DNA of 30,316 nucleotides from a virus (UHGV-0320916); one strand, 5' to 3'. Positions 1 to 29,602 are shown, numbered from the stretch's first letter. Notes: generated by a model not told the origin, from the sequence alone. A program made the numbers and translations.

Positions 1-485
1 GCTGGGCATTCCCGTGGCCATCGGTCACGCGGCGGACAATCTCGGCGATGCCGATTTTGTCGTCCGCACCGCCGCCATCCACGATGACAATCCCGAGATC
101 TCCGGCGCGGTCGCACGCGGCATCCCGGTCTTTGAGCGGGCGCAGGCGTGCGATGATGGTGTCGCCGTGGCCGACGCGGTAGCCGGAGTGGAGCAGCGGC
201 AGCGTACCGCCGATCATCACGGTGGGGTCGGTGTCCGCCGCCATGAAGATGTGTGTCGCCATGCTGGTGGTGGTCGTTTTGCCGTGCGTGCCGGAGATGC
301 ACAGGGCGTTGCGGTAGCCGTGCATGATCGCGCCCCACGCCTGCGCACGCTCAAAGACCGGGATGCCGCGTGCGACCGCGCCGGAGATCTCGGGATTGTC
401 GTCGTGGATGGCGGCGGTGCGGACGACAAAATCGGCATCGCCGAGATTGTCCGCCGCGTGACCGATGGCCACGGGAATGCCCAGC
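1..485. repeat. Inverted repeat: arm 1..150 is the reverse complement of arm 336..485 (2 mismatches, at ~85 and ~139), separated by a 185-bp spacer; left arm runs off the window edge
   Basis: Direct comparison: window 1-10 gctgggcatt equals revcomp of 476-485; identity holds to position 150/336 and breaks at 151/335. Confidence 0.9.
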
Positions 486-3149: not shown

Positions 3150-3749
3150 ATGCGTAAATTATGTGCTGTTATTCTGTCCGCAGTAGTCTGGCTGGTTGCC
3201 GCTGGTACGCCAGCGAGCGCAGCAGAGCATCAGTCCACACTAAGCGCCGGGTATCTTCAGACCCATACTGATATGCCAGGCAGTGATGACCTGAAGGGCA
3301 TTAACGTGAAATACCGTTATGAATTTACGGACACGCTGGGGCTGGTGACGTCATTCAGTTATGCCAATGCCAAAGATGAGCAAAAAACGCATTACAGCGA
3401 TACCCGCTGGCATGAAGATTCCGTGCGTAACCGCTGGTTCAGCATGATGGCGGGGCCATCTGTACGCGTGAATGAATGGTTCAGTGCTTATGCGATGGCG
3501 GGTATGGCTTACAGCCGTGTGTCGACCTTCTCCGGGGATTATCTCCGCGTAACTGACAACAAGGGGAAAACGCACGATGTGCTGACCGGAAGTGATGACG
3601 GTCGCCACAGCAACACGTCTCTGGCGTGGGGGGCTGGCGTGCAGTTTAACCCGACCGAATCCGTGGCCATTGATATTGCTTATGAAGGCTCCGGCAGTGG
3701 TGACTGGCGCACTGACGGTTTCATCGTGGGTGTCGGTTATAAATTCTGA
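3150..3749 (+). CDS. lom: Lom outer membrane protein (Ail/Lom family)
   Basis: 199 aa; MRKLCAVILSAV...signal peptide, ends ...DGFIVGVGYKF; near identical to lambda Lom; GAGG RBS 6 nt upstream. Confidence 0.9.
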   Translation: MRKLCAVILSAVVWLVAAGTPASAAEHQSTLSAGYLQTHTDMPGSDDLKGINVKYRYEFTDTLGLVTSFSYANAKDEQKTHYSDTRWHEDSVRNRWFSMMAGPSVRVNEWFSAYAMAGMAYSRVSTFSGDYLRVTDNKGKTHDVLTGSDDGRHSNTSLAWGAGVQFNPTESVAIDIAYEGSGSGDWRTDGFIVGVGYKF

Positions 3750-3775
3750 TTAGCCAGGTAACACAGTGTTATGAC

Positions 3776-3802
3776 AGCCCGCCGGTTCAGGCGGGCTTTT
3801 TT
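3776..3802 (+). terminator. Intrinsic terminator-like hairpin after lom (agcccgcc-ggttca-ggcgggct followed by tttttt)
   Basis: Stem-loop plus T tract read directly from sequence. Confidence 0.55.
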
Positions 3803-3813
3803 GTGGAGTGGAT

Positions 3814-6213
3814 ATGGCAGCAGTAAAAATCTCAGGTGTGCTGAAAGATTGTGCGGGAAAACCAATACAGAACTGCACTATTCAACTGAAGGCAAAGCGT
3901 AACAGCACCACGGTACTGGTGAACACGGTGGCTTCTGAAAATCCGGATGAAGCCGGACGTTACAGCATGGATGTTGAGTATGGCCAGTACAGCGTCACCC
4001 TGCTGGTTGAAGGTTTTCCGCCTTCACATGCCGGGACCATTACCGTCTATGAAGGCTCCAGACCAGGTACGCTGAATGATTTTCTCGGTGCCATGACGGA
4101 AGATGATGTCATGCCGGAGGCATTGCGTCGTTTTGAGGCAATGGTGGAAGAAGTGGCACGCAACGCCGAAGCCGCCTCTCAGAGCGCAGCGGCGGCAAAG
4201 AAATCCGAAACTGCAGCGGCATCATCGAAGAACGCGGCGAAAACCTCAGAAACGAATGCAGCTAATAGTGCACAGGCGGCAGCGACCTCAAAGACTGCAT
4301 CGGCAAACTCCGCGACAGCAGCCAAAAAATCAGAAACCAACGCGAAAAATAGCGAGACAGCCGCAAAGACGAGCGAAACCAACGCAAAGTCCAGCCAGAC
4401 GGCAGCGAAGACCAGCGAAACGAATGCCAAAGCCAGTGAAACTGCGGCAAAAAACAGCCAGGTTGCAGCAGCCCAAAGCGAGAGCGCGGCAGCCGGTTCT
4501 GCGACTTCAGCAACTGGATCAGCAACTGCTGCGGCTAACAGCCAGAAAGCTGCGAAGACGAGTGAAACTAACGCAAAGTCCAGCCAGACGGCAGCGAAGA
4601 CCAGCGAAACGAATGCCAAAGCCAGTGAAACTGCGGCGAAAAACAGTCAGGATGCAGCAGCCCAAAGCGAGAGTGCCGCAGCTGGTTCTGCAAGTGCGGC
4701 GGCTTCTTCTGCCTCTGCATCAGCCAACAGTCAAAAAGCTGCAAAAACCAGTGAAACCAACGCAAAGGCGAGCGAGACTGCGGCGGCTAACTCAGCGAAA
4801 GCATCGGCAGCAAGCCAGACGGCTGCAAAAGCAAGTGAAGACGCAGCCAGAGAGTATGCAAGCCAGGCTGCGGAGCCGTATAAACAAGTTTTGCAGCCGC
4901 TTCCCGATGTGTGGATACCGTTTAACGATTCACTGGATATGATTACGGGCTTTTCGCCGTCATATAAAAAGATTGTTATTGGTGATGATGAAATAACGAT
5001 GCCTGGCGATAAGGTTGTAAAGTTTAAACGCGCATCAACTGCCACATATATCAATAAATCAGGCGTATTTAGTGTTGCTAAAATTGATGAGCCACGATTT
5101 GAAAAAGAAGGTTTATTGATTGAAGGACAGCGCACTAACTATTTTGTTAAATCCAATATCCCCGCTGAATGGACGAGTACCAGCAATATCGATAAAACTA
5201 ATAATGGTGTTGATGAATTTGGTTTTTCATATGCCAAAATGCGAACAAAAGATAATATGACAGGACAATCATCTGCACTTAGTCTGCATACATGCAGTGC
5301 ATCCCGGGGGATTGATGTTAGTGGCGATAATAAGTATTGCACTGTTTCATGCAGGGTTAAAGCTCCTGATGGTCTTCGTTGTCGTTTGCGTTTTGAAAAA
5401 TACGATGGGTCGGTTTATACATTTTTAGGAGATGCTTATTTAACTTTCGGAACTCTGATAATAGAAAAAACTGGCGGAGCAGCCAATAGAATAGCAGCTA
5501 CTGCAACTAAAGATCCGGTTACAGGGTGGATTTTCTATGAGGCAACTATAGAAGCTGTTGAAGGTGAAACCTTAATTGGCGCAATGATTCAGTATGCGCC
5601 GAAAAAAGGTGGTGTAACTGAAGCGGGAGATTATATTTACCTTGCAACACCACAATTTGAAAACGGCGGATGTGCTTCATCTTTTGTTATTACGACAACT
5701 GTACCCGCAACCCGCTCCAGTGATATGGTGACGATCCCAACTGAAAATAATATCTATAATAGACCGCTTACGTGCCTGGTCGAGGTTAATAGAAATTGGG
5801 GCGATATTCCTCCTAATGTAGCACCGCGTATTTTTGATTTTTCTGGTGTGCCACCTATTGAGTCAATTACATACGCTTTTAACACAACTGAGAAATATTA
5901 CGGTCAGCTTTATATGCAAACTTATAAAGCGTCGACAAGTACTTACGTTTCTAGTGTGTTTGCTGGTCGAACTGATGTTCGAAAATTCATTGGTGGTTTT
6001 AATATTTATTCTGATGGTACTAAACGAGTAGTTTCTAACGGTGAGGCTACTAAAACCATGAAAACGGAGTGGACGGGCGTAAAAACATGGACCTTTATTC
6101 GAATTGGAGGTCAAGCCACATCGGGAACTCGTCATCTATTCGGCCATTTGAGAAATCTTCGTCTCTGGCATAAAGAATTAACTGATGCGCAAATGGGGGA
6201 GAGTATTAAATGA
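3814..6213 (+). CDS. stf: Side tail fibre protein Stf: lambda-like N-terminus, Ala/Ser/Thr-rich SETNAK-type repeat shaft, AT-rich divergent C-terminal domain with LamG/concanavalin-like signature at its end
   Basis: MAAVKISGVLKDCAGKPIQNCTIQLKAKRNSTT... matches lambda Stf N-terminus; repeated ...AAKTSETNAKASETAAKNSQ... units; C-terminus ...HLFGHLRNLRLWHKELTDAQMGESIK; ATG at 3814 preferred over track GTG at 3808. Confidence 0.85.
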   Translation: MAAVKISGVLKDCAGKPIQNCTIQLKAKRNSTTVLVNTVASENPDEAGRYSMDVEYGQYSVTLLVEGFPPSHAGTITVYEGSRPGTLNDFLGAMTEDDVMPEALRRFEAMVEEVARNAEAASQSAAAAKKSETAAASSKNAAKTSETNAANSAQAAATSKTASANSATAAKKSETNAKNSETAAKTSETNAKSSQTAAKTSETNAKASETAAKNSQVAAAQSESAAAGSATSATGSATAAANSQKAAKTSETNAKSSQTAAKTSETNAKASETAAKNSQDAAAQSESAAAGSASAAASSASASANSQKAAKTSETNAKASETAAANSAKASAASQTAAKASEDAAREYASQAAEPYKQVLQPLPDVWIPFNDSLDMITGFSPSYKKIVIGDDEITMPGDKVVKFKRASTATYINKSGVFSVAKIDEPRFEKEGLLIEGQRTNYFVKSNIPAEWTSTSNIDKTNNGVDEFGFSYAKMRTKDNMTGQSSALSLHTCSASRGIDVSGDNKYCTVSCRVKAPDGLRCRLRFEKYDGSVYTFLGDAYLTFGTLIIEKTGGAANRIAATATKDPVTGWIFYEATIEAVEGETLIGAMIQYAPKKGGVTEAGDYIYLATPQFENGGCASSFVITTTVPATRSSDMVTIPTENNIYNRPLTCLVEVNRNWGDIPPNVAPRIFDFSGVPPIESITYAFNTTEKYYGQLYMQTYKASTSTYVSSVFAGRTDVRKFIGGFNIYSDGTKRVVSNGEATKTMKTEWTGVKTWTFIRIGGQATSGTRHLFGHLRNLRLWHKELTDAQMGESIK
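4366..4790 (+). repeat. Direct repeats with 189-bp (63-codon) period inside stf: units starting ~4366 and ~4555 are near identical over ~138 bp, a third degenerate unit starts ~4744
   Basis: aagacgagcgaaaccaacgcaaagtccagccagacggcagcgaagaccagcgaaacgaatgccaaagccagtgaaactgcgg... recurs 189 bp later with a few substitutions. Confidence 0.85.
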
Positions 6214-6491
6214 AAGATTTAACGCTCAAATTTGCAGACAGGGCCGACTTTTCGGCCTTTATGGAGAGTATTGGCTATTATGATGACGAGTCGATGCAGG
6301 ATGATATTCTTATTGACGTGATAGGTAACGTGTACAAAGAAACCGGAGAACTGACTGAAGATGGCGAACCGGTATGTGTTAAGGAAGACGGATATTTTGT
6401 AAACGTGCGCATCATTAATGATGCAAAAAAATCGTCAATATTCGATAAATACGCGATTGTTGTTGAGCATCAACTTCGTGGCTGGATGTGA
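6210..6491 (+). CDS. Hypothetical acidic 93-aa protein, start overlaps stf stop (ATGA)
   Basis: ORF MKDLTLKFADRADFSAFMESIGYYDDESMQDD...; translational coupling to stf; no family recognised. Confidence 0.5.
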   Translation: MKDLTLKFADRADFSAFMESIGYYDDESMQDDILIDVIGNVYKETGELTEDGEPVCVKEDGYFVNVRIINDAKKSSIFDKYAIVVEHQLRGWM

Positions 6492-6500
6492 GGGAGACAA

Positions 6501-7205
6501 ATGGCTACATCGACAGTAATTCCAGGAGACATCACCACGTTAAAGGGAGATGTCAGTAAAGCCAAGGAAGATATTTCCTCAATTAACGGAAAAGTATCAA
6601 CGCTTCAGACTGATATGACCAGTGCAAAGCAGGATATCAGCACCAGATACACAAAAACTGAAGTTGATAATAAGCTGAAAAACAAAGTGGAAGTGAACGA
6701 TCTGGAAAGTGGTCGTTATGGTGGAGATTTTTACCCGCTGACTGGTCGTGAAGCGTTTTATTTGTGGGGATTGGGCACGACTACAGCGGCGGCAAACCTT
6801 TATCTTAATCCTGACCCCGCAATTTCGTCTGTACTGCGGTCCACATCGTCTATCCGCTATAAACATTCAGTAGAGACGATAGATTCGGAGCACGCCGATC
6901 TCATTTTCAAGATGCGCCCTGTGTGGTACAGGTCGCAATGCGAAAATGACAGGCGCGATTGGGGATTCTATGGATTGATTGCCGAGGAAGTAGGAGAAAT
7001 TGCCCCTCAGTTTGTTCACTGGCGACCAGCTAACGAGAATGATGCTCCTGAAGCTATTTCCAGCAATGGCCTTGTTGCCGAAGGTGTAATGTACGAACGT
7101 CTGGTTGTTCCACTGATTCACCATATCCAGAAACTGACTGAAAGAGTTGATGAACTTGAGTCAGAATTAAAGTTGTTATCAACTTCCCGAAGCGATATCG
7201 GATAA
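6501..7205 (+). CDS. Tail-fibre-like protein: N-terminal coiled-coil segment plus C-terminal domain resembling the intramolecular chaperone (peptidase S74-like) of phage fibres/tailspikes
   Basis: AGGGAG RBS; heptad-like N-terminus (LKGDVSKAKEDISSINGKVSTLQTDMTSAKQDIS); C-terminal ...SSIRYKHSVETID...MRPVWYR...GFYGLIAEEVGEIAPQFV...ELESELKLL pattern resembles that domain from memory. Confidence 0.5.
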   Translation: MATSTVIPGDITTLKGDVSKAKEDISSINGKVSTLQTDMTSAKQDISTRYTKTEVDNKLKNKVEVNDLESGRYGGDFYPLTGREAFYLWGLGTTTAAANLYLNPDPAISSVLRSTSSIRYKHSVETIDSEHADLIFKMRPVWYRSQCENDRRDWGFYGLIAEEVGEIAPQFVHWRPANENDAPEAISSNGLVAEGVMYERLVVPLIHHIQKLTERVDELESELKLLSTSRSDIG

Positions 7206-7215
7206 AGGAGGAGTA

Positions 7216-7509
7216 ATGGATATAACACCTTTCCTTCATGCACTTTGTGCTGTGGCTGCGCAGGTACTGGTTGGTCTTTTTACCGGAAACTGGGCTTACG
7301 GGGCGATAGCCGGTTGTACGTTCTTCATTGCTCGTGAACATACCCAGGCAGAATATCGCTGGATTGAAATGTTCGGGCATGGCAAGCGAATGAATATGCC
7401 GTGGTGGGGCGGTTTTGATCCGCGCGCGTGGGATGTAGCAAGTCTGATGGATTTTGCTGTGCCGGTGGTGGCGTGTCTGCTGGTCTGGCTGTTGGTTAAT
7501 CGTGGGTGA
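7216..7509 (+). CDS. Hypothetical small membrane protein (97 aa, 2-3 predicted hydrophobic helices)
   Basis: Strong AGGAGG RBS 5 nt upstream of ATG; hydrophobic stretches ALCAVAAQVLVGLF and FAVPVVACLLVWLLV. Confidence 0.55.
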   Translation: MDITPFLHALCAVAAQVLVGLFTGNWAYGAIAGCTFFIAREHTQAEYRWIEMFGHGKRMNMPWWGGFDPRAWDVASLMDFAVPVVACLLVWLLVNRG

Positions 7510-7529
7510 AAAAAGGTGAGCTGTATATG

Positions 7530-7658
7530 CAACGGAGGAAGAAACCTCGTTGCTGGAAGCCTGGAAGAAGTATCGGGTGTTGCTGAACCGTGTTGATACA
7601 TCAACTGCACCTGATATTGAGTGGCCTACGAACCCTGTCAGGGAGTAATCATTGGGAT
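7530..7658 (+). pseudogene. tfa: Tail fibre assembly protein (Tfa) C-terminal remnant, ~42 codons, no start codon
   Basis: Frame encodes [42 protein letters not shown], matching the lambda Tfa C-terminus; frame is closed by TGA at 7527-7529. Confidence 0.75.
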
Positions 7659-7702
7659 TATGCCGCAGCACGTCTTAAGCAAGAACGTGCTGCGGTTGGA
7701 TG

Positions 7703-8359
7703 CTATTTTTTCCCTGAAGCGGAAAACATTACTACAGTACCTTGAACCTTGGTTTTAACATTCTCGAAATGCTCTGAGAGTATATGTGTTAAGCCTTCTT
7801 CGGAATCTTTTGTGTTTGAAAAGATGCCTTTCTGATTGTAAATGCGCATCAGTTTTTGACCGAAGCTATTGTGCACAACTCCATCGCCAAGAATTGTGGC
7901 TCCGTATAGAGTTCCATCGTCAGTTAAGGCCTGCGCCGCATTGCGTATTACACAGCTTTTTGTAGATATATTTCCAGGCAGGCAGTGAAGAAGGTAAAAC
8001 ATGGAAATGGAATCAAATTGACCATGTAACGCCGCGGGATAAGGTTCAAAAACATCATGGCTAATTTTATGTTTAATTTTTGATTCCCCAGCCCTTGTAG
8101 ATGCCGCGTTCAGGCTAGCTTCGTTCAAATCCATTAAAGATATCAGACTACTCTCAGGTACGTGAGTAAGGTAAAACCCAGTTCCAACACCAATATCCAG
8201 ATGGTTGTTACCTAAATGTTCCAGAAAGTGTGGAAGAAGGTGTTCCTTTGTAGGACATCCCCATGCAAGCCGATTTGATACTCCCAAAACCCACCAGTCA
8301 TAAAGCTTTAGGGTAAGTGGTGTGTAAATTTTAGCCCCATCATCTGTGTTTTTTTTCAT
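7703..8359 (-). CDS. ybcY: Class I SAM-dependent methyltransferase (DLP12 YbcY-like)
   Basis: Motif I LDIGVGTGFY; ORF track 7703..8371, ATG at 8359 (MKKNTDD...) has better GGTG spacing; lies between two tfa remnants as in DLP12. Confidence 0.7.
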   Translation of the reverse strand: MKKNTDDGAKIYTPLTLKLYDWWVLGVSNRLAWGCPTKEHLLPHFLEHLGNNHLDIGVGTGFYLTHVPESSLISLMDLNEASLNAASTRAGESKIKHKISHDVFEPYPAALHGQFDSISMFYLLHCLPGNISTKSCVIRNAAQALTDDGTLYGATILGDGVVHNSFGQKLMRIYNQKGIFSNTKDSEEGLTHILSEHFENVKTKVQGTVVMFSASGKK

Positions 8360-8427
8360 TAATTTCACCATGTTATAGTTTTATTTGTGAATTAAATCAA
8401 TTATGGCGATGAATTACAAGGGGTTAA

Positions 8428-8726
8428 ATGCTGCCGCAGCATAGCGATATTGAAATAGCCTGGTATGCTTCGATACAGCAGGAGCCGAATGGCTGGAAGA
8501 CCGTCACCACACAGTTCTACATCCAGGAATTCAGTGAGTATATTGCGCCACTGCAGGATGCTGGGAAATCGCAACGGAGGAAGAAAGATCGTTGCTGGAG
8601 GCATGGAATAAATATCGGGTATTGTTGAATCGTGTTGATACATCAGTAGCTCTGGGTATGAAGCTGTTTGTAACTCATGTTACAGTAACAGCCATTACTA
8701 TCTCGAAGGTGCAAAATGTATATTGA
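8428..8726 (+). pseudogene. tfa: Tail fibre assembly protein (Tfa) homologue with a frameshift: ...[10 protein letters not shown] in one frame, [27 protein letters not shown]... in another
   Basis: Two frames each match consecutive parts of lambda Tfa (IAPLQDA then [23 protein letters not shown]); junction at ~8560-8570. Confidence 0.65.
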
Positions 8727-18759: not shown

Positions 18760-18900
18760 CTTATGTGGTTGGGTGATCTGGCTTTTCAGCCACGTAGTCG
18801 AGAGTCGACGTTGTTTAAAGAGCCTGCCAGTCTGTTCCATTTGGCTTCCAGCGTCCTGCTGACGGTTAAATAGTACGATATGTACTTTATGAGATCAATA
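18760..18900. promoter_or_regulatory. Candidate pL/oL region with nutL expected nearby; contains inverted repeats ACAAtttgTTGT and AGTACgatatGTACT that resemble repeats in the cI-cro intergenic region
   Basis: Position upstream of N on the minus strand; palindromes read from sequence; no promoter assignment verified. Confidence 0.35.
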
Positions 18901-19090
18901 CAATTTGTTGTAAGTTGGCGTGGTTTTTTATAACGCTTTGTATTTAATAGTGTTGTTTTTTAGCGTGGATGTATTGCCTCGGCGATGTAAGGAGAGATCA
19001 GAATTGCGTGGTTTAGTGGGTTGCATCTATTTATTTTTCAATAAATACAATTGGTTATGTGTTTTTAGGTGGGGCGATCGTGAGGCAAAG

Positions 19091-19117
19091 AAAACCCGGC
19101 GCTGAGGCCGGGTTTTT
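19091..19117. terminator. Bidirectional intrinsic terminator (aaaa-cccggc-gctgag-gccggg-ttttt) directly after the stop of the 258-aa gene
   Basis: GC stem flanked by A run and T run; analogous position to the lambda terminator after rexB. Confidence 0.7.
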
Positions 19118-19894
19118 CTAGGCTACCAGAGACTCAATCCAAGAGTCTCTGGTATGGAATGGCAACACTCGTGCGGTATCATTAAATAGTAGTGATAGTT
19201 GCTGTAGCTCAGGTGTTAACCCATCGCTGTCAACTATTACAAATCTATTGTTTATGTCAGGAACGACCTGACTTAAGTCAACAATCTTCCCAACTGTTGA
19301 GTGGGCAGTATTCCATCCCTTACTGCTGGCAAGGCTTACCGTAAACCCGCGTTTTGGTGGTATTAGTCGAGACTCATTCCTTAGCGTTAACGGAACAGTA
19401 ATGTTATGCCCACTAATACCTTTCACTTTTTCCTTTAAGGCTAGTCGCTTCCCAAGCCCTGCTGATTTTAAGTAACTGATTACACATTTTTCGAACTTAT
19501 CGTCTTTGACCTCAGCATACCAATCAGCAGTTTGGGCGGATGCAAGAATCCCACCACGAATAACATTTGCAGTTACCTGTCCAACGGACGACTCATCTGC
19601 CCACGCAGATATCTCTCCAGAGTCATTTAATGAAATTCCTTGCGAAGCGAGTGATGACCTGATCAGATCAATTTTCTTTTTAGTCAGGTGGATGCCGCGT
19701 GATTCAATATTCATCAATGTATCGCAGTAGTCTGTAACCCTATACTGACCACTCATCTCTTGAACGAATACACTTATCTGCTCACAATCATCGTAGTATG
19801 TGAAGGGACTAATAACGCGCAGCAACGTGTCGCTCATTGGGTGGCATTCAAACCCGAGCTTAGATATGACTGTTGAACACGTTACATTTCCCAT
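19118..19894 (-). CDS. Hypothetical 258-aa protein, second gene of a two-gene cassette in the rexB position; no recognised domain
   Basis: ORF MGNVTCSTVISKLGFECHPMSDTLLRVISPF...; start overlaps upstream gene by 13 nt; AT-rich relative to flanking lambda genes. Confidence 0.65.
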   Translation of the reverse strand: MGNVTCSTVISKLGFECHPMSDTLLRVISPFTYYDDCEQISVFVQEMSGQYRVTDYCDTLMNIESRGIHLTKKKIDLIRSSLASQGISLNDSGEISAWADESSVGQVTANVIRGGILASAQTADWYAEVKDDKFEKCVISYLKSAGLGKRLALKEKVKGISGHNITVPLTLRNESRLIPPKRGFTVSLASSKGWNTAHSTVGKIVDLSQVVPDINNRFVIVDSDGLTPELQQLSLLFNDTARVLPFHTRDSWIESLVA

Positions 19895-20424
19895 GATAGC
19901 TGACCTGATTTATCTTGATTAGGTAAAGGTGGGCTGCCTTCATATATGATATTAAGCGCCTCGCAAAAATAATTCCAGTAGCCAAAAAAATCATCTGGCT
20001 TGATGTTCGTTTCAAGCTTAAGTGCAATTTCTTCCCCAGCTGATTCGAAGTACATGTGATAGTGAGGACCTCGAGCCACCTCAACAAAATCTGGATGGTT
20101 CACTATAGATTTATTACGGTGTGGCTTGTTATCCGCAGGGTACGGGTCAAGCGCGTAAATGCGCCTGTCATGAAGAAACATCACAAATGAAATCTTCACT
20201 ATATCCACCCCTTCAACGATAGGAGGACGCCAGTGAAGCATAAATCTTATGCCTGTGATTGGGTTGCCAATTTCATCAAAAGCTTTGAGATCCAATTTAA
20301 ACCAGATTGGGGTTCGTCCCTCACTTCCGGTCCATGTAACTCCGCTAAAAGTTACTTTTTTCAAGCGAGTAATAGCTTGGTCAACCTCTTTCTGGGTAGG
20401 CTTAAAGTCGCCTTTTTTAGCCAC
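19882..20424 (-). CDS. Hypothetical 180-aa protein, first gene of a two-gene cassette in the rexA position downstream of cI; no recognised domain
   Basis: ORF MAKKGDFKPTQKEVDQAITRLKKVTFSGVTW...HRNKSIVNHPDFVEVARGPHYHMYF...; 46 bp downstream of cI stop, same strand. Confidence 0.65.
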   Translation of the reverse strand: MAKKGDFKPTQKEVDQAITRLKKVTFSGVTWTGSEGRTPIWFKLDLKAFDEIGNPITGIRFMLHWRPPIVEGVDIVKISFVMFLHDRRIYALDPYPADNKPHRNKSIVNHPDFVEVARGPHYHMYFESAGEEIALKLETNIKPDDFFGYWNYFCEALNIIYEGSPPLPNQDKSGQLSWEM

Positions 20425-20470
20425 TGATTCGTATCACCATGAAAGTTATTGTTAATACCTGTGCTTCTTG

Positions 20471-21130
20471 TCACCCAAACGTCTCTTCAGGCCACTGACT
20501 AGCGATAACTTTCCCCACAACGGAACAACTCTCATTGCATGGGATCATTGGGTATTGTGGGTTTAGTGGCTGTAGAAACACCTGACCGCTATCCCTGATC
20601 AGTTTCTTGAAGGTAAACTCATCACCACCAAGTCTGGCTATACAGAAATCGCCTGGCTCAACAGCCTGCTCAGGGTCAACCAGAATTAACATCCCGTCAG
20701 GAAAGCTGGGCTTGGAACCTGTTGGTGCGGTCATTGAGTTACCTTCAACCTCAAGCCAGAATGCAGAGTCACTGGCTTTTTTGGTTGTGCTTACCAATCT
20801 CTCCGCATCGCCTTTGGTAAAGGTTCTGAGTTCTGGAGAGAACATCCCAGCCTGAACATGAGAAAAAACAGGGTACTCATATTGTTTTTTAACTGGGGCC
20901 GATGAGTATTCGCCAACAGGTGAAAATGTCCCGTCGTGGTTGAATGATATGTTATCAATACCAAGGTATTTAAACACCACACCAATATCACTAAGAGATG
21001 GATGACGAGATCCGCGCAACCAGTGTCCAATCCCACCCTGCGTCATACCTAGCTCTTCGGCTAACTTCTCTTGAGTTATGCCGAGCTCTTTCATTCTGGA
21101 TCTAGCCAGTTCATACCATTTCATTTTCAT
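20471..21130 (-). CDS. cI: CI repressor: lambda-type C-terminal dimerisation/autocleavage domain with a non-lambda N-terminal HTH domain (hetero-immune)
   Basis: C-terminal ...[131 protein letters not shown] matches lambda CI; N-terminal HTH ...[23 protein letters not shown] differs; start codon uncertain (21124-21172). Confidence 0.85.
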
Positions 21131-21241
21131 GTCCTTATTATTACGCTTTGTACTGGAACCATCCATGCACAATGTGTATTTTTACTTGTATTCGTAAAGT
21201 ACATATTGTATTTTTTTATTCGTGTTTACTATGGAGGGCAT
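21131..21241. promoter_or_regulatory. Immunity-region operator/promoter (oR, divergent pRM/pR) between cI and cro; contains ACAA...TGTA-type inverted repeats
   Basis: Divergent cI/cro arrangement; candidate -35 TTTACT and -10 TATTGT 17 bp apart upstream of the cro RBS GGAGGG. Confidence 0.5.
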
Positions 21242-21457
21242 ATGAGCAACCTACGAAAATATCGAGAGTCACTGAATATCTCTCAAACAACACTTGCTAA
21301 GGCAGTTGGATGCACACAGGGAGCTATCGGACATTGGGAATCTGGTCGTCGCTTCCCAGACCTTAAAACATGCCGTGCTCTTGTTGCGTGCCTAAACAAG
21401 TTAGGCGCAAAAGTCAGTCTTGATGACGTGTTCCCGCCGGAACACAAAGCCGCTTAA
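21242..21457 (+). CDS. cro: Cro-like HTH repressor (not lambda Cro sequence)
   Basis: 71 aa MSNLRKYRESLNISQTTLAKAVGCTQGAIGHWESGRRFPD...; GGAGGG RBS; HTH similar to the cI N-terminal domain. Confidence 0.75.
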   Translation: MSNLRKYRESLNISQTTLAKAVGCTQGAIGHWESGRRFPDLKTCRALVACLNKLGAKVSLDDVFPPEHKAA

Positions 21458-21598
21458 TAAGCGGATCCGCTCTTTGTAACAACGGACATTCGTCCTACGT
21501 CGCTGAAAAGCGAGTTCCAAGATATCTGACCAACTAAGGCCATATGCGTTTCCACGCATACCTTTCAACTAACTATTCACTATTGGAAATCTTAAGAA

Positions 21599-21895
21599 AT
21601 GGAAAGAACAAGTTACAGCAAACTATCACAGCGTGACGTTGATCGCGCAGAAACAGATTTACTTATCAATCTGTCAGCTATTACCCAGCGCGGTCTGGCA
21701 AAGATGATTGGCTGTCATGAATCGAAGATAAGCAGAACGGACTGGAGATTTATTGCTTCGGTCTTGTGTGCTTTCGGAATGGCATCAGACATCAGTCCGA
21801 TTAGCAGGGCTTTTAAGTATGCGCTTGATGGACTCACCAATAAAAAACGCCCGGCGGCAACCGAGCGTTCTGAACAAATCCAGATGGAGTTCTGA
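21599..21895 (+). CDS. cII: CII transcriptional activator (lambda-like C-terminus, divergent N-terminus)
   Basis: ...LTNKKRPAATERSEQIQMEF matches the lambda CII C-terminus. Confidence 0.8.
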   Translation: MERTSYSKLSQRDVDRAETDLLINLSAITQRGLAKMIGCHESKISRTDWRFIASVLCAFGMASDISPISRAFKYALDGLTNKKRPAATERSEQIQMEF

Positions 21896-21927
21896 GGTCA
21901 TTACTGGATCTATCAACAGGAGTCATT

Positions 21928-22827
21928 ATGACAAATACAGCAAAAATACTCAACTTCGGCAGAGGTAACTTTGCCGGACAGGAGCGTAATGTGGCAGATC
22001 TCGATGATGGTTACGCCAGACTATCAAATATGCTGCTTGAGGCTTATTCGGGCGCAGATCTGACCAAGCGACAGTTTAAAGTGCTGCTTGCCATTCTGCG
22101 TAAAACCTATGGGTGGAATAAACCAATGGACAGAATCACCGATTCTCAACTTAGCGAGATTACAAAGTTACCTGTCAAACGGTGCAATGAAGCCAAGTTA
22201 GAACTCGTCAGAATGAATATTATCAAGCAGCAAGGCGGCATGTTTGGACCAAATAAAAACATCTCAGAATGGTGTATCCCTCAAAACGAGGGAAAATCCC
22301 CTAAAACGAGGGATAAAACATCCCTCAAATTGGGGGATTGCTATCCCTCAAAACAGGGGGACACAAAAGACACTATTACAAAAGAAAAAAGAAAAGATTA
22401 TTCGTCCGAGAATTCTGGCGAATCCTCTGACCAGCCAGAAAACGACCTTTCTGTGGTGAAACCGGATGCTGCAATTCAGAGCGGCAGCAAGTGGGGGACA
22501 GCAGAAGACCTGACCGCCGCAGAGTGGATGTTTGACATGGTGAAGACCATCGCGCCATCAGCCAGAAAACCGAATTTTGCAGGGTGGGCTAACGATATCC
22601 GCCTGATGCGTGAACGTGACGGACGTAACCACCGCGACATGTGCGTGCTGTTCCGCTGGGCATGCCAGGACAACTTCTGGTCCGGTAACGTGCTTAGCCC
22701 GGCCAAACTCCGCGACAAGTGGACCCAGCTCGAAATCAACCGTAACAAGCAACAGGCAGTCGTGACAGCCAGCAAACCAAAACTCGACCTGACAAACACA
22801 GACTGGATTTACGGGGTGGATCTATGA
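21928..22827 (+). CDS. O: Replication initiator O
   Basis: 299 aa MTNTAKILNFGRGNFAGQERNVADLDDGYARLSNMLLEAYSG..., matches lambda O. Confidence 0.93.
   Translation: MTNTAKILNFGRGNFAGQERNVADLDDGYARLSNMLLEAYSGADLTKRQFKVLLAILRKTYGWNKPMDRITDSQLSEITKLPVKRCNEAKLELVRMNIIKQQGGMFGPNKNISEWCIPQNEGKSPKTRDKTSLKLGDCYPSKQGDTKDTITKEKRKDYSSENSGESSDQPENDLSVVKPDAAIQSGSKWGTAEDLTAAEWMFDMVKTIAPSARKPNFAGWANDIRLMRERDGRNHRDMCVLFRWACQDNFWSGNVLSPAKLRDKWTQLEINRNKQQAVVTASKPKLDLTNTDWIYGVDL
22277..22400. promoter_or_regulatory. Replication origin inside O: four ~18-bp iterons (tccctcaaaacgaggga-type) followed by an A-rich tract
   Basis: Iterons at ~22277, 22297, 22321 and 22344, then acacaaaagacactattacaaaagaaaaaagaaaag. 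Confidence 0.85.
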
Positions 22828-23525
22828 AAAACATCGCCGCACAGATGGTTAACTTTGACCGTGAGCAGATGCGTCGGATCGCCAACAACATGCCGGAACA
22901 GTACGACGAAAAGCCGCAGGTACAGCAGGTAGCGCAGATCATCAACGGTGTGTTCAGCCAGTTACTGGCAACTTTCCCGGCGAGTCTGGCTAACCGTGAC
23001 CAGAACGAACTGAACGAAATCCGCCGCCAGTGGGTTCTGGCTTTCCGGGAAAACGGGATCACCACAATGGAACAGGTTAACGCAGGAATGCGCGTAGCCC
23101 GTCGGCAGAATCGACCATTTCTGCCATCACCCGGGCAGTTTGTTGCATGGTGCCGGGAAGAAGCATCCGTTATCGCCGGACTGCCAAACGTCAGCGAGCT
23201 GGTTGATATGGTTTACGAGTATTGCCGGAAGCGAGGCCTGTATCCGGATGCGGAGTCTTATCCGTGGAAATCAAACGCGCACTACTGGCTGGTTACCAAC
23301 CTGTATCAGAACATGCGGGCCAATGCGCTTACTGATGCGGAATTACGGCGCAAGGCTGCCGATGAACTGACCTGTATGACAGCGCGAATTAACCGTGGTG
23401 AGACGATACCTGAACCAGTAAAACAACTTCCTGTTATGGGCGGTAGACCTCTAAATCGTGCACAGGCTCTGGCGAAGATCGCAGAAATTAAAGCTAAGTT
23501 CGGACTGAAAGGAGCAAGTGTATGA
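22824..23525 (+). CDS. P: Replication protein P (DnaB helicase loader)
   Basis: 233 aa MKNIAAQMVNFDREQMRRIANNMPEQYDEKPQVQQVAQIINGVF..., matches lambda P; overlaps O stop. Confidence 0.93.
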   Translation: MKNIAAQMVNFDREQMRRIANNMPEQYDEKPQVQQVAQIINGVFSQLLATFPASLANRDQNELNEIRRQWVLAFRENGITTMEQVNAGMRVARRQNRPFLPSPGQFVAWCREEASVIAGLPNVSELVDMVYEYCRKRGLYPDAESYPWKSNAHYWLVTNLYQNMRANALTDAELRRKAADELTCMTARINRGETIPEPVKQLPVMGGRPLNRAQALAKIAEIKAKFGLKGASV

Positions 23526-23811
23526 CGGGCAAGAGGCAATTATTCATTACCTGGGGACGCATAATAGCTTCTGTGCGCCGGACGTTGCCGCGCTAACAGG
23601 CGCAACAGTAACCAGCATAAATCAGGCCGCGGCTAAAATGGCACGGGCAGGTCTTCTGGTTATCGAAGGTAAGGTCTGGCGAACGGTGTATTACCGGTTT
23701 GCTACCAGGGAAGAACGGGAAGGAAAGATGAGCACGAACCTGATTTTTAAGGAGTGTCGCCAGAGTGCCGCGATGAAACGGGTATTGGCGGTATATGGAG
23801 TTAAAAGATGA
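23518..23811 (+). CDS. ren: Ren protein
   Basis: ...AIIHYLGTHNSFCAPDVAALTGATVTSINQAAAKMARAGLLVIEGKVWRTVYYRFATREEREGKMSTNL..., matches lambda Ren. Confidence 0.85.
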   Translation: MYDGQEAIIHYLGTHNSFCAPDVAALTGATVTSINQAAAKMARAGLLVIEGKVWRTVYYRFATREEREGKMSTNLIFKECRQSAAMKRVLAVYGVKR

Positions 23812-23884
23812 CCATCTACATTACTGAGCTAATAACAGGCCTGCTGGTAATCGCAGGCCTTTTTATTTGGGGGAGAGGGAAGTC

Positions 23885-24325
23885 ATGAAAAAACTAACCT
23901 TTGAAATTCGATCTCCAGCACATCAGCAAAACGCTATTCACGCAGTACAGCAAATCCTTCCAGACCCAACCAAACCAATCGTAGTAACCATTCAGGAACG
24001 CAACCGCAGCTTAGACCAAAACAGGAAGCTATGGGCCTGCTTAGGTGACGTCTCTCGTCAGGTTGAATGGCATGGTCGCTGGCTGGATGCAGAAAGCTGG
24101 AAGTGTGTGTTTACCGCAGCATTAAAGCAGCAGGATGTTGTTCCTAACCTTGCCGGGAATGGCTTTGTGGTAATAGGCCAGTCAACCAGCAGGATGCGTG
24201 TAGGCGAATTTGCGGAGCTATTAGAGCTTATACAGGCATTCGGTACAGAGCGTGGCGTTAAGTGGTCAGACGAAGCGAGACTGGCTCTGGAGTGGAAAGC
24301 GAGATGGGGAGATCGGGCTGCATGA
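23885..24325 (+). CDS. ninB: NinB recombination protein
   Basis: MKKLTFEIRSPAHQQNAIHAVQQILPDPTKPIVVTIQERNRSLDQNRKLWACLGDV..., matches lambda NinB. Confidence 0.88.
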   Translation: MKKLTFEIRSPAHQQNAIHAVQQILPDPTKPIVVTIQERNRSLDQNRKLWACLGDVSRQVEWHGRWLDAESWKCVFTAALKQQDVVPNLAGNGFVVIGQSTSRMRVGEFAELLELIQAFGTERGVKWSDEARLALEWKARWGDRAA

Positions 24326-24849
24326 CTATCAAATCAAATACGCCAGCACACGACAAGGACTGCTGGCAAACGCCGCTTTGGCTTTTTGATGCACTGGATA
24401 TTGAGTTTGGATTCTGGCTGGATTCGGCAGCGAGCGACAAAAATGCTCTGTGTGCTCACTGGCTAACTGAGGCCGACGACGCGCTCAATTCTGAGTGGGT
24501 AAGCCACGGTGCAATCTGGAATAACCCACCGTACAGCAATATCAGGCCGTGGGTGGAAAAAGCCGCTGAGCAGTGCATACAACAGCGACAGACGGTAGTG
24601 ATGCTTGTGCCAGAGGATATGTCAGTCGGATGGTTCAGCAAGGCTCTGGAGAGTGTCGACGAAGTTCGCATTATCACTGATGGACGGATTAATTTTATCG
24701 AACCATCGACGGGGCTGGAGAAGAATGGAAACAGCAAAGGCTCCATGCTGCTGATTTGGCGACCGTTCATCAGTCCTCGACGGATGTTTACTACCGTATC
24801 CAAAGCGGCATTGATGGCGATCGGGCAGGGCGTCAGGAGGGCTGCATGA
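24322..24849 (+). CDS. Phage-type DNA N6-adenine methyltransferase (Dam-like)
   Basis: [31 protein letters not shown]...; NPPY catalytic motif ([10 protein letters not shown]); ATGA overlap with ninB stop. Confidence 0.8.
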
Positions 24850-25022
24850 GACGACAGCGACGAAGCATCACCGACATAATCTGCGAAAACTGCAAATACC
24901 TTCCAACGAAATGCTCCAGAAATAAACGCAAGCTAATCCCAAAAGAATCTGACGTAAAAACCTTCAATTACACAGCCCACCTGTGGGATATCCGGTGGCT
25001 AAGATATCGTGCGAGGAAATGA
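24846..25022 (+). CDS. ninE: NinE
   Basis: [58 protein letters not shown]; ATGA overlap with the methyltransferase stop. Confidence 0.7.
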
Positions 25023-25366
25023 CAATGGATTATTCACAGTTAAGTGATTTTGAAATTAACAGAATGGTAGGAGACATAATTTTTAAAGGCCTTTGGGCAA
25101 GTAAACCGGAAACATCAGGGAATAACACCAACAAATGGTATTACGGAAATGCTGATACAACTTTTGAGCCATTAAATCATTTGCCTGACTACTGCAATGA
25201 TCCGAGCGCTTCATGGCCGATTATTGAGAAATACAGGATTTCTATCTTAGACCAGTTAACTGAATGGTGTGTGGATGCAAAAGGCGTAAGCCCAATATTT
25301 GATACCAGACCTCTCCGCGCCGCCATGATTGTCTTTCTCCTGATGCAGGAGGCCAATAATGCTTAG
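25019..25366 (+). CDS. Hypothetical nin-region protein (115 aa)
   Basis: [76 protein letters not shown]...; ATGA overlap with ninE stop. Confidence 0.55.
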
Positions 25367-25553
25367 CCCATCTCAATCCCTTCAATACCTGAAAGAAAGC
25401 ATAGAGCGGGCTTCAATGTGCACAGAGTGGATTCTATCTAGGTTTAGCGCATACAGAAGATTGCCGGTAAAGGGCATGCCAAGCAAGTCGATGCTGCATA
25501 TGCAAAAGAATGCGCGCTGGAAGGTATGGCGAGAACACAGGTTATGTGGCTAA
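25359..25553 (+). CDS. Hypothetical nin-region protein (64 aa)
   Basis: ORF overlapping the previous stop; [29 protein letters not shown]... Confidence 0.4.
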
Positions 25554-25572
25554 AAGAGGGGGTTATTAAGGC

Positions 25573-25935
25573 GTGAATACCTACAGCATCACATTACCCT
25601 GGCCTCCGAGCAATAATCGCTATTACCGCCATAATCGCGGGCGCACGCACGTCAGCGCAGAGGGGCAGGCATACCGCGATAACGTCGCCCGAATCATTAA
25701 AAACGCAATGCTGGATATCGGCCTGGCTATGCCTGTGAAAATCCGCATTGAGTGCCACATGCCGGATCGCCGTCGCCGTGACCTGGATAATCTGCAAAAA
25801 GCCGCTTTTGACGCACTCACTAAAGCAGGTTTCTGGCTGGATGATGCTCAGGTCGTTGATTACCGCGTTGTGAAGATGCCTGTTACCAAAGGTGGGAGGC
25901 TGGAACTGACCATCACCGAAATGGGGAATGAATGA
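25573..25935 (+). CDS. rusA: RusA Holliday-junction resolvase (GTG start)
   Basis: 120 aa [45 protein letters not shown]..., matches E. coli DLP12 RusA. Confidence 0.92.
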
Positions 25936-26072
25936 TGTTTGAGTTTAATATGGCAGAACTTCTTCGCCACCGCTGGGGGCGTCTGCGCTTATATCGTTTC
26001 CCCGGTTCTGTTTTGACCGATTACCGAATACTGAAGAATTACGCCAAAACCCTGACAGGAACAGGAGTATGA
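25932..26072 (+). CDS. ylcG: YlcG-like small protein (46 aa)
   Basis: [46 protein letters not shown]; ATGA overlap with rusA stop; not in ORF track (short). Confidence 0.7.
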
Positions 26073-26157
26073 AGTCAGAGATAACAATCAACTAATACTG
26101 TTTTGTTGATTTTTGCTTGTAATTGGCGTTCTGGTCTGATTTTTGTGGAGTAAGTTG

Positions 26158-26541
26158 ATGCGTGATATTCAGATGGTTCTTGAGCGTTGGGGTGCGTGGG
26201 CGGCTAATAATCATGAAGATGTGACCTGGTCGTCCATTGCCGCCGGTTTTAAGGGATTAATTCCTTCAAAAGTAAAATCTCGCCCGCAATGTTGTGACGA
26301 TGACGCGATGATCATTTGCGGGTGCATGGCCCGTCTGAAAAAGAACAACAGCGATTTACACGATTTATTAGTAGATTATTATGTATGTGGTATGACATTC
26401 ATGTCACTGGCAAGTAAGCATTGCTGCTCGGATGGTTATATCGGGAAAAGGTTACAGAAGGCTGAGGGCATAATTGAAGGGATGTTAATGGCATTAGATA
26501 TCCGGTTAGATATGGATATCGTTGCTAATAATTCTAATTGA
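26158..26541 (+). CDS. quuD: Late-gene antiterminator Q (DLP12 QuuD type)
   Basis: [60 protein letters not shown]...; ORF track begins at 26143. Confidence 0.85.
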
Positions 26542-26562
26542 TATGCAATTGTTTACTAAAAG

Positions 26563-26590
26563 TTATTAAAAATGGGGCGTGGAAACGCCC
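26563..26590 (-). terminator. Hairpin ggggcg-tggaaa-cgcccc followed on the minus strand by a U run; candidate nmpC terminator
   Basis: Minus-strand read ggggcguuuccacgcccc auuuuuaau. Confidence 0.45.
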
Positions 26591-26678
26591 CCAAAATAAA
26601 GGGTAATATATAACAGAAGGTTTATATAGTAAGAAGCAAGGTAGTGCTTCTAAAGGAAGTGGCTTGAGGGCTCCACTT

Positions 26679-26720
26679 ATATGTTGCGGAGGCAAAGCCT
26701 CCCGCAACATATCTTTTTCG
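26679..26720 (+). terminator. Strong hairpin plus T run ~180 nt downstream of Q: candidate tR' of the short pR' transcript
   Basis: atatgttgcggagg-caaag-cctcccgcaacatat followed by ctttttcg. Confidence 0.5.
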
Positions 26721-26729
26721 TAAGTCAGA

Positions 26730-27812
26730 TTAGAACTGATAAACCAGACCTACAGCGACGATGTCGTCGGTATCAATACCAGCTGTTTTGGTAAACTTAC
26801 TATCGTCAATTAAGTTGATTTTGTAATCAACAAAAGTAGACATGTTTTTATTAAAGTAGTAAGTAGCACCGACATCGACATACTTGACTAAGTCTCGGTC
26901 ACCATGAACACCAAGGTCTTTACCTTTTGACTGAAGGTAAGCAACAGATGGGCGCAGACCGAAGTCAAACTGATATTGTGCTACTGCTTCAAAGTTTTGT
27001 GCTTTGTTTGCAATATGGTTATTACCAAAAACGGTCATATTCTGAGTTTCAGAATATGTGGTAGCCAGATAGATATTGTTCGCATCATATTTCAGGCCTG
27101 CAGCCCATACTTCCGCATTTTTGCCGGAGGCATTGAATTTGCTCTTACCATAGGCGACCTGACCGTCAGTGCGATCTGATTTAGCATAGGTTGCACCCAC
27201 GCCGAATCCTTCATACTCATAAGTAGTGGAGAAACCGAAACCATCACCATTGGCTTCAGTTACGTCAGTGCGGTCATTTTTACCCTGATACTGAGCAGCA
27301 AAGTTCAGGCCATCGACCAGACCAAAGAAGTCGTTGTTACGATAAGTTGCAACACCAGTAGTGCGACCAGTCATGAACACATCTGTTTGGGTCCAGGTAT
27401 CACCACCGAATTCTGGCAGAACGTCAGTCCACGCACCGATGTCGTATGCTACACCGTAGTTACGGCCGTAATCGATTGAGCCGTAATCACCAAATTTCAG
27501 GCCTGCAAATGCAAGACGGGTTTTGTCTTTGGAAGAACCTTGAGATTCAGCACGGTTGCCTTTGAATTCATATTCCCACTGACCGAAACCAGTCAGTTGA
27601 TCGTTGATTTGGGTTTCACCTTTGAAGCCAAGACGGGCATAAGTAGTATCACCATCATCTGCATCATTAGAGGAGAAGTAGTGCTTGGCATTAACTTTCC
27701 CGTATAGATCCAGCTTGTTACTGTCTTTATTATAAATTTCAGCTGCCTGAGCAGACATCGCCATCAGTACTGATGCAGCTACAGCAGAAATTGCCACTGT
27801 TAATTTTTTCAT
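26730..27812 (-). CDS. nmpC: General porin NmpC/OmpD family, intact; antisense to late transcription between Q and the lysis genes
   Basis: [40 protein letters not shown]...VGLVYQF; typical OmpC/OmpF-family porin with C-terminal Phe. Confidence 0.9.
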
Positions 27813-28400
27813 TGTACGCCCTTTTTTTGAACTATTATTAAAAAATGATGTCACTGCGCGATAAATATTCATCTAATCAATGTGATTATTTCAAGATGTA
27901 AGTTTTAGTTTCTCATTTAATTTGTGAAGTAGATCTCTATTTTTATCTGAACCTTTTCTATCTAATCCTATTCATGGCTCTTGTCTGAACAAAAATAAAT
28001 CTATTAGCTAATTTATATTAATGGCACTTATTTATAAGCGCTCTATAATTCTTTAGCTTAATTTAAACAAACTAAAAATAACATCGGAAATTATTAACTG
28101 ATTATTTGTTGAGGTTTTCTTATGTATTTGTGGTGGTGTTTTGAACACTCGGTGGCATTCTCACAAATATCATTTAGTAGTTTACGTACGTAAAAAATTG
28201 GTTATGCTGTTAAGAGTGGTTACTTCGTCACACAGCTTAAACCCGCCGTCGAGCGGGTTTTTCCATTTTTTGAGTCTCGATATTAGCTGATAACCCAATA
28301 CCTGAGTTATTCACTGACTCCGAATCTGTTACGTTTCTGCCTTTATTGCGATACGTAGTATCCCCTTAATTTACACCCGCTTTGTCTGCGAGGTGGGGTT

Positions 28401-28616
28401 ATGAAATCCATGGATAAGTTAACAACGGGTGTCGCCTATGGCACCTCAGCAGGTAGTGCCGGTTACTGGTTTTTACAGCTGCTCGATAAAGTCACGCCCT
28501 CACAGTGGGCAGCAATAGGTGTGCTGGGTAGCCTGGTATTTGGCCTGCTGACGTACCTGACAAACCTTTATTTCAAGATTAAAGAAGATAAGCGCAAGGC
28601 TGCGAGAGGTGAATAA
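28401..28616 (+). CDS. essD: Class II holin (phage 21 S / pinholin type, dual-start MKSM)
   Basis: [71 protein letters not shown]. Confidence 0.9.
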
Positions 28617-29571: not shown

Positions 29572-29602
29572 AGCTGCCCATATCGATGGGCAACTCATGC
29601 AA

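Follow-up and report, generated by a model that had tools for sequence, protein, structure and literature searches.

The viral sequence UHGV-0320916, analysed over its whole length of 30,316 nucleotides (the window), is that of an Escherichia coli DLP12-like lambdoid phage whose side tail fibre gene, stf, is followed on the same strand by three genes with products of 93, 234 and 97 amino acids (aa), here called p93, p234 and p97 (Table 1). This region is most readily understood, at a probability of about 0.62, as the 3' half of a two-component side fibre operon in which p234 is a minimal distal or branch subunit; its position, N-terminal motif and C-terminal domain would make it the shortest known version of such a subunit. 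The module as a whole is a working, conserved accessory set of what is probably a two-part side tail fibre, of a known though little-studied kind and common among E. coli phages, and its fresh aspects are confined to the generality of the docking motif with p93 and to the unexplained p97 family. A preliminary description of this DNA had listed an acidic, translationally coupled 93-aa protein, a 234-aa protein, a 97-aa membrane protein and a Tfa remnant, and the reading frames are exactly as it gave them. It had offered three roles for the set: a mosaic leftover of fibre exchange, a small accessory fibre, or a group of chaperones for the Stf tip.

In the proposed arrangement Stf would be the proximal subunit: behind its tail-attachment domain come an alanine-rich helical shaft and a conserved neck, followed by a hypervariable head-spike-fibre/galectin-like domain for which a surface glycan is the probable ligand. 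p93, whose synthesis is tied to that of Stf by translational coupling, would be the dedicated partner of the Stf C-terminal domain, most likely as an assembly chaperone and possibly as a structural joint. The first ~16 residues of p234 would serve as a docking peptide, residues ~12-60 would form a trimeric coiled coil and residues ~66-115 a short tip. The Peptidase_S74 (S74) domain at residues 116-234 would nucleate folding of the trimer from the C-terminus and then cut itself off at Ser116 by means of the Ser116/Lys121 dyad, the mature protomer staying on the fibre. p97 would take no part in the fibre; the most plausible action of this small inner-membrane protein is to change the envelope of the cell during infection or lysogeny, by superinfection exclusion or receptor masking.

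The S74 domain and predicted structure of p234

p234 carries a genuine S74 domain at the level of both sequence and fold, as the preliminary description had guessed. The match to PF13884 scores 27.5 bits (gathering score 22; E=3.8e-6) over residues 116-172 and profile positions 1-57 of 58, and encloses the motif on which that guess was based (..SSIRYKHSV..GFYGLIAEEV.., residues 116-164). The Ser/Lys dyad is present as well: S116 and K121 are invariant in all 40 aligned homologues, at identities down to 28%, and align with the Ser and Lys of DT57C LtfA (8hqz, E=8.5e-7), the C-terminus of which is the sole sequence relative of p234 with a solved structure. AlphaFold, run on the 40-homologue alignment, gives a confident domain at residues 120-233 (per-residue confidence, pLDDT, of 78-93) with the expected S74 fold and long C-terminal helix, and the top Foldseek matches of this domain are the MyRF ICA (7dc3, E=2.7e-5, probability 1.0), the GA-1 chaperone (3gud) and the endoNF chaperone (3gw6). 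In its hidden Markov model match, Ser-x4-Lys dyad, C-terminal position and predicted fold p234 thus resembles the S74/ICA proteins endosialidase K1F, T5 pb1, GA-1 gp12 and MyRF; in these, however, the domain ends a large spike or fibre, whereas in p234 it makes up the C-terminal half of 234 aa, behind a predicted coiled coil.

Autocleavage of the 26-kDa protein at the predicted site would yield a mature protomer of 115 residues and 12.4 kDa and a released chaperone of 119 residues and 13.7 kDa. The segment before the site is conserved, with the pattern TTTxxANL...RSTSS. The N-terminal part, already described as resembling a coiled coil, is modelled by AlphaFold as helix over residues 12-60, with pLDDT of about 80-87 at residues 11-40, and gives weak matches to trimeric coiled coils such as the P22 gp26 tail needle, and to repeats of DT57C LtfA.

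Recurrence of the cassette and its distal gene

The cassette recurs in lambdoid prophages and in T1-like, T5-like, Seuratvirus and Dhillonvirus phages. Scans of IMG/VR with p93 and with the N-terminal motif of p234 were followed through their best 80 matches each, all of them close E. coli relatives, so that the cross-family evidence rests on a handful of GenBank phages. Full-length relatives of p234 (55-60% identity, 215-231 aa) were found by tblastn among GenBank phages in dozens of lytic T1-like Drexlerviridae. In PeterMerian and phiE31-2 a lateral tail fibre is followed by a 92-codon open reading frame that overlaps the fibre stop and then by an S74 protein (231 aa in PeterMerian, 215 aa in phiE31-2); the C-terminal ~445 residues of the fibre are 47% identical to Stf, and the 92-aa protein is 46-53% identical to p93. 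The order is matched in IrisVonRoten, KurtStettler and KarlBarth, with distal genes of 574, 510 and 98+196 aa, respectively. Taken over its C-terminal ~445-560 aa, Stf is 46-50% identical to the lateral fibres of PeterMerian and to IrisVonRoten Gp22.

The distal genes differ greatly in length, the 2G7b gene of 345 aa included, and are united by their N-terminus: the motif M[AVT]TxTxIPxDI[TK]xLK heads seven distal proteins of 98 to 574 aa from five phage groups. An S74 domain is present in the scanned distal proteins of at least 231 aa, and those of 345, 510 and 574 aa score 47-55 bits. KarlBarth (Dhillonvirus) is peculiar in that its distal fibre is split (gp30/gp31, 5270-6149 of the retrieved stretch), the docking motif being on the 98-aa protein, while the overlapping 196-aa protein has a Phage_tail_C_2 domain and no S74 domain; this split may reflect a frameshift or a programmed shift, or the tip may truly consist of two pieces.

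Among the 80 IMG/VR prophage loci retrieved with p93, the order StfN-StfC-p93-distal gene-p97 (StfN and StfC being the N- and C-terminal parts of Stf) is invariant. The distal gene is the 234-aa allele in 53 loci and a ~345-aa allele in 26, and the remaining locus runs out at the contig edge. The cassette is also present in PhiR49_1 (PV340568), the p234 of which is 96.6% identical. The ~345-aa allele has only its first 28-32 residues in common with p234. The 234-aa allele occurs with StfC alleles that are 40-100% identical to that of the window, and the receptor-domain allele and the distal gene therefore assort independently. Retrieval with the motif alone placed p93 at most 20 nucleotides upstream in 78 of 79 loci, which, as close relatives of the window, add little independent weight. 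The preliminary description had made its reading depend on a significant profile match to the chaperone domain and on conservation of the genes as a unit in related phages; the match is significant, and the unit does recur.

The closest known counterpart is found in the Tequintavirus IrisVonRoten, whose Gp24 is a 'T-shaped' distal fibre, shown in a multimer model as attached to the proximal Gp22, with the galectin-like C-terminal domain of Gp22 protruding sideways (PMC11990801). The gene order matches that of the window: over the C-terminal ~440 aa of Gp22 the identity with the Stf C-terminus is 50%, Gp23 is homologous to p93 (37% identity), and Gp24 starts with the p234 motif (MVTKTVIPTDITKLK) and ends in an S74 domain. 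The two systems differ in that Gp24 has 574 aa and two receptor-binding domains, whereas p234 has only about 50 residues between its coiled coil and the cleavage site; IrisVonRoten, moreover, is a lytic T5-like phage and has no p97. The branched, L-shaped fibres LtfA and LtfB of DT57C (PMC4728585, PMC10713586) can be likened by description to the arrangement proposed here, since a second fibre there attaches through the first; genetic work has shown that the attachment of LtfB, via LtfA, is made by an N-terminal module that is conserved and is also found in phiEco32 gp15 (PMC4728585). Both of those fibres end in S74 domains, so that LtfA has an S74 domain of its own, whereas Stf ends in the head-spike/galectin-like domain and has none. 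Like two-component fibres, the module of the window has a putative second fibre gene directly downstream of the first in one operon, and a conserved N-terminal module on otherwise different bodies. The small accessory fibre of the preliminary description is thus the best supported of its three suggestions, p234 having at the same position the docking motif that is common to longer, bona fide distal fibres.

p234 has direct orthologues, similar over the full length, in the 231-aa proteins of Drexlerviridae (PeterMerian bas05_0029, 'putative lateral tail fiber chaperone'; SECphi27, 'chaperone of endosialidase'), which match it in length, motif, dyad and the fibre-p93-p234 arrangement. These phages differ in being lytic and in having no p97 downstream, and the chaperone naming has no experimental basis. 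The name points to a different reading, in which p234 would be a trans-acting chaperone for the folding or trimerisation of Stf and would stay outside the virion. BASEL records do call both the 231-aa and the 510-aa homologues 'putative lateral tail fiber chaperone', very little is left of p234 in its mature form, and p234 is conserved where the Stf receptor domain is variable. However, the label most likely derives from the Pfam name 'chaperone of endosialidase', and in all studied cases (endoNF, T5 pb1, GA-1 gp12; PMC4728585) the S74 domain acts within its own chain. The shared N-terminal motif also heads the 574-aa fibre with its two receptor-binding domains, and the invariant dyad implies release of p234's own N-terminal product. 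Finally, 1H12 and 4A7 have this type of Stf together with p93, but the gene after p93 is p97 and a distal gene is absent; this indicates that such an Stf does not need p234. A trans-acting role is accordingly rather unlikely, and of the chaperone set that had been suggested for the Stf tip, the part of p93 is plausible while that of p234 is contradicted by 1H12 and 4A7.

It is also unlikely that p234 is an independent short fibre placed elsewhere on the tail tip, or a soluble trimer. The contact of p234 with Stf is one that we infer, and the independent assortment of the p234 and StfC alleles would suit a protein without such a contact. On the other hand, five phage groups whose tail tips are unrelated always have the p234-type gene behind Stf and p93, and a docking motif would need a conserved partner; the only conserved neighbours are p93 and the neck and tail of StfC.

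Selection and history of the cassette

All three genes are under purifying selection, the pairwise ratio of nonsynonymous to synonymous substitution (dN/dS) against the window copies being 0.24 for p93, 0.13 for p234 and 0.11 for p97. It is therefore highly improbable that the module is a decaying mosaic remnant in which p234 is the orphaned C-terminus of a 1,300-aa fibre (PHROG 3299) and p93 and p97 are junk reading frames. Such an origin could be read into the alignment of p234 to positions 1147-1384 of the 1385-position PHROG profile, and into the tfa remnant just downstream of the cassette. Against it stand not only dN/dS values of 0.11-0.24 but also the length of p234, which is 233-234 codons in 71 of the 79 motif-retrieved copies, its own ribosome-binding site, and its conserved N-terminus, with which the protein truly starts in seven phages. 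p234 is, furthermore, kept at 55-60% identity over its full length in lytic T1-like phages with compact genomes, and the gene order is fixed in the 80 prophage loci; the earlier suggestion of a mosaic leftover of fibre exchange is thereby refuted.

Fibre exchange has nevertheless left its traces at this locus. Besides the Tfa C-terminal remnant behind p97, a second one lies at about 8567-8650, and the two flank an intact ybcY-type S-adenosylmethionine-dependent methyltransferase gene (7703-8371, minus strand), around which RefSeq also annotates a DinI fragment. In K-12, ybcY is a pseudogene. The Tfa remnants are stacked scars of earlier fibre-cassette exchanges, and they indicate that StfC-p93-p234-p97 replaced an older stf-tfa pair by recombination, which fits the mosaic allele pattern of the IMG/VR prophage loci.

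p93 as a probable partner of the Stf C-terminal domain

p93 belongs to PHROG 1361 (phrog_1361, E=2.2e-46), and homologues are found in 183 phage records that span lambdoids, Drexlerviridae, Dhillonvirus, Seuratvirus/Nonagvirus, T5-like and rV5-like phages. In every annotated record among the 40 matches listed, the p93 homologue is placed at, or overlapping, the 3' end of a gene labelled as fibre or tail, and a homologous StfC lies directly upstream of p93 in 89 of 89 collected loci. p93 tracks the Stf C-terminal domain even where there is no distal gene, as in 1H12, 4A7 and the rV5-like EmilHeitz. In the last of these (Vequintavirus; 5001-6022 of the retrieved stretch) the homologue has 110 aa with an internal insertion and follows a 1478-aa lateral fibre, and the gene after it has no docking motif; a myovirus can thus have p93 beside the fibre alone. 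When 1.84 billion representative proteins were searched with a profile, 64 hits were obtained, all of at most 150 aa and none of them fused to a fibre. p93 is always a free-standing protein of about 90-110 aa.

As a small gene immediately downstream of a fibre, p93 recalls lambda Stf-Tfa and the fibre-chaperone pairs of Mu and P2. It differs from the lambda Tfa and Mu gpU chaperones in showing no similarity to them in sequence or fold, true Tfa being represented here only by the 39-codon remnant. Searches of Pfam, NCBIfam, PADLOC and the PDB gave no match for p93, Tfa-type chaperones included, and its predicted fold, an alpha+beta sandwich of moderate confidence, has no informative structural neighbour. 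Literature searches yielded nothing on p93, on p97 or on the 231-234-aa S74 proteins apart from the labels given in annotations. We favour the reading that p93 is probably a dedicated assembly partner of the head-spike/galectin-like domain; alternatively, it is possibly a structural joint between the proximal and distal subunits. In a conservation profile the middle of StfC (aa ~450-760) is hypervariable and the last ~30 aa of Stf are conserved; these last residues, together with the neck (aa ~330-440), could be the conserved surfaces for either the chaperone or the joint role.

p97, a companion of receptor-binding operons in temperate phages

p97 matches PHROG 1443 (phrog_1443, E=3.5e-59), with homologues in 75 phage records, mostly of temperate E. 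coli phages. Hydropathy gives three hydrophobic segments, at about residues 5-24, 25-39 and 73-97, and the loop that joins the last two (AREHTQAEYRWI..FG.GKR.NMPWWGGFD) scarcely varies in alignments across genera, which argues for a specific target or activity. The gene also occurs behind quite different receptor-binding proteins. In JEP4 it lies next to int and overlaps at its start with the stop of a P22-like tailspike gene; in the myovirus phiHAP-1 a homologue overlaps the P2-like tail fibre assembly gene; a Comamonas prophage has one after GpJ, and a Citrobacter prophage has one after a spike of the pectate-lyase type. In contrast, none of the lytic phages examined, whether T1-like, T5-like, Seuratvirus or Dhillonvirus, has p97 in its cassette. 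p97 is therefore the terminal gene of receptor-binding operons and a general companion of these in temperate phages, not one specific to this fibre, which the preliminary description had not foreseen.

Pfam, NCBIfam and PADLOC gave no match for p97, nor was any described defence or superinfection-exclusion family matched. Lysogenic-conversion genes classically lie beside tailspike genes, as do P22 gtrABC, Sf6 oac and those of epsilon15. The position of p97 at such a site would suggest, with low confidence, an envelope-modifying or exclusion role. Alternatively, p97 may possibly be a late-expressed aid to fibre function or release, for example by masking receptors on lysing cells, and have no role in protecting lysogens. 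This would suit a gene that is co-oriented and tightly spaced with the late fibre genes, with no promoter-like site of its own, and that overlaps at its start with the stop of the preceding gene in both JEP4 (a tailspike gene) and phiHAP-1 (a tail fibre assembly gene). It is less easily reconciled with the lack of p97 in the lytic cassettes and with a chromosomal homologue in Aeromonas, and we regard it as the less probable course.

In 1H12 and 4A7 (4677-8126 and 3677-6273 of the retrieved stretches, respectively) the p97 homologue has as its immediate downstream neighbour, in the opposite orientation, the sitABCD manganese/iron transporter operon. The position behind p97 is a hotspot for cargo, which in the window consists of ybcY, a hydrolase gene and ompT.

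Points that weigh against a two-part fibre

Several observations weigh against the arrangement proposed here. The attachment of p234 to Stf is read from synteny, from the motif and from published models of a homologue, and the mature p234 is very small, any receptor-binding function being putative. For the tip (residues 62-113) the model has a pLDDT below 50, as would be expected where a trimer is required, and this segment is conserved, not variable. Copies of p234 are 93-100% identical, as against 40-100% for StfC, which is unusual for a specificity-determining tip. The conservation of p234 beside a hypervariable StfC middle suggests instead that Stf, not p234, sets strain specificity, and that the role of p234 is structural or lies in binding a conserved receptor.

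Two further points concern p97. The consensus scan found neither a promoter nor a terminator of its own, which lends no support to p97 as a moron and is awkward for expression in a lysogen; a weak or non-sigma-70 promoter is possible. In Aeromonas rivipollensis, moreover, a homologue of 57% identity (4001-4309 of the retrieved stretch) is chromosomal, with no phage genes in 8 kb, and lies between pirin and RIO1 kinase genes, near two lipid A acyltransferase genes. The p97 family may thus have a cellular origin or function.

Operon layout and genomic setting

The stop codon of stf (TGA) overlaps the start codon of p93 in an ATGA arrangement (TTAAATGAAAG), and the genes that follow are closely spaced (Table 1). 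A consensus scan of the plus strand found no promoter-like or terminator-like site from 3808 to 7700; stf to p97 (3808-7509) can therefore be read as a single operon. A strong terminator-like hairpin lies at 3776-3797, after lom and 11 nucleotides before the stf start, with an 8-base-pair stem (seven of the pairs GC) and a T-run. Expression of stf to p97 must therefore need read-through, by Q antitermination, or an unrecognised promoter.

Table 1. Features of the side tail fibre region, numbered from the first nucleotide of the window
Feature	Position	Strand	Description
stf, putative proximal side tail fibre subunit	3808-6213	+	801 aa counted from GTG; likely true start ATG 3814
Stf N-terminal tail-attachment domain	aa 5-134 (3820-4209)	+	Pfam phage_tail_N, E=6.6e-66
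Stf shaft, Ala/Ser/Thr-rich	tandem repeats 4333-4785	+	tandem repeat scan
Stf neck, conserved	aa ~330-440	+	conservation profile
Stf head-spike-fibre/galectin-like domain, variable	aa 437-637	+	NCBIfam GTA_spike_fiber, E=2.4e-14
p93	6210-6491	+	93 aa; isoelectric point 4.3; 20 acidic and 10 basic residues
p234	6501-7205	+	234 aa; 9 nucleotides after p93; preceded by GAGGGAGA
p234 N-terminal motif, proposed docking peptide	aa 1-16 (6501-6548)	+	MATSTVIPGDITTLKG; common to all genes after p93
p234 predicted alpha-helical (trimeric coiled-coil) stalk	aa 12-60 (6534-6680)	+	AlphaFold helices 12-47 and 52-60
p234 predicted autocleavage site Thr115/Ser116 and Ser116/Lys121 dyad	6843-6863	+	Pfam S74 match starts at aa 116
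p234 Peptidase_S74 intramolecular chaperone domain	aa 116-234 (6846-7202)	+	Pfam, AlphaFold and Foldseek; release after trimerisation predicted
p97	7216-7509	+	97 aa; 10 nucleotides after p234; preceded by AAGGAGGAG
Tfa C-terminal remnant	7529-7648	+	lambda-type; 39 codons, no N-terminus; RefSeq annotation of the identical IAI39 region and direct translation

The module is flanked by J, lom and stf on the upstream side and by the ybcY-type methyltransferase, an alpha/beta hydrolase and ompT on the downstream side, and at least 80% of the segment 5800-7700 is present in 382 complete E. coli records. In the RefSeq record of IAI39 this stf appears as two 'incomplete' pseudogene pieces (4015-6414 of the IAI39 stretch), and a 146-aa 'hypothetical protein' is annotated antisense to the Ala-rich repeats (4179-4619 of the window, minus strand). 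Since stf is one intact reading frame of 801 codons in the window, both the split and the antisense frame are probably annotation artefacts of the low-complexity repeat shaft.

The partial 3' end of a tRNA-Arg (GGGCCGCAGGTTCGAATCCTGCAGGGCGCGCCA) lies at 11969-12001, directly upstream of intD, and ARAGORN found no complete tRNA. Past ompT the window is no longer colinear with IAI39, and from about 12000 to 30316 extends an int-exo-bet-cI-O-P-Q-porin-lysis-iss arm of the same prophage kind. This arm follows the ompT end, which places the ompT end against the int end in an attP-like junction, and the window looks like a circularised or permuted phage genome with ompT as cargo rather than a chromosomal segment. 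An OmpC/NmpC-like porin gene lies between Q and the lysis genes (26730-27872, minus strand), and an iss/bor serum-survival lipoprotein gene follows the lysis cassette (about 29604-29897, minus strand); both are typical lambdoid morons with no bearing on the fibre module.

Implications

A broader scheme can be put forward, tentatively and as something that we would sooner doubt than expect. p93, the Stf neck and tail, and the 16-residue motif might constitute a universal plug-and-socket joint by which lambdoid, T1-like, T5-like, Seuratvirus and Dhillonvirus phages swap distal fibres of 98 to 574 aa. p234 would then be the capping or minimal plug, acting on a conserved receptor, and p97 the founding member of an undescribed membrane family of receptor-binding operons that protects lysogens through an envelope change.

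Which strains of E. coli lie within reach of a lambdoid prophage's phage, or of an engineered lambda-based delivery particle, is decided by the side tail fibres. Reading the region as a two-part fibre would correct several database labels, namely 'chaperone' for the S74 proteins, 'hypothetical' for p93, and the split pseudogenes given for stf. It would also mean that in fibre transplants p93 has to be moved along with the Stf C-terminus, and the distal subunit has to bring its own chaperone domain. PHROG 1361 and PHROG 1443 are abundant, uncharacterised families with clear genomic associations, and the roles proposed here for p93 and p97 are testable.

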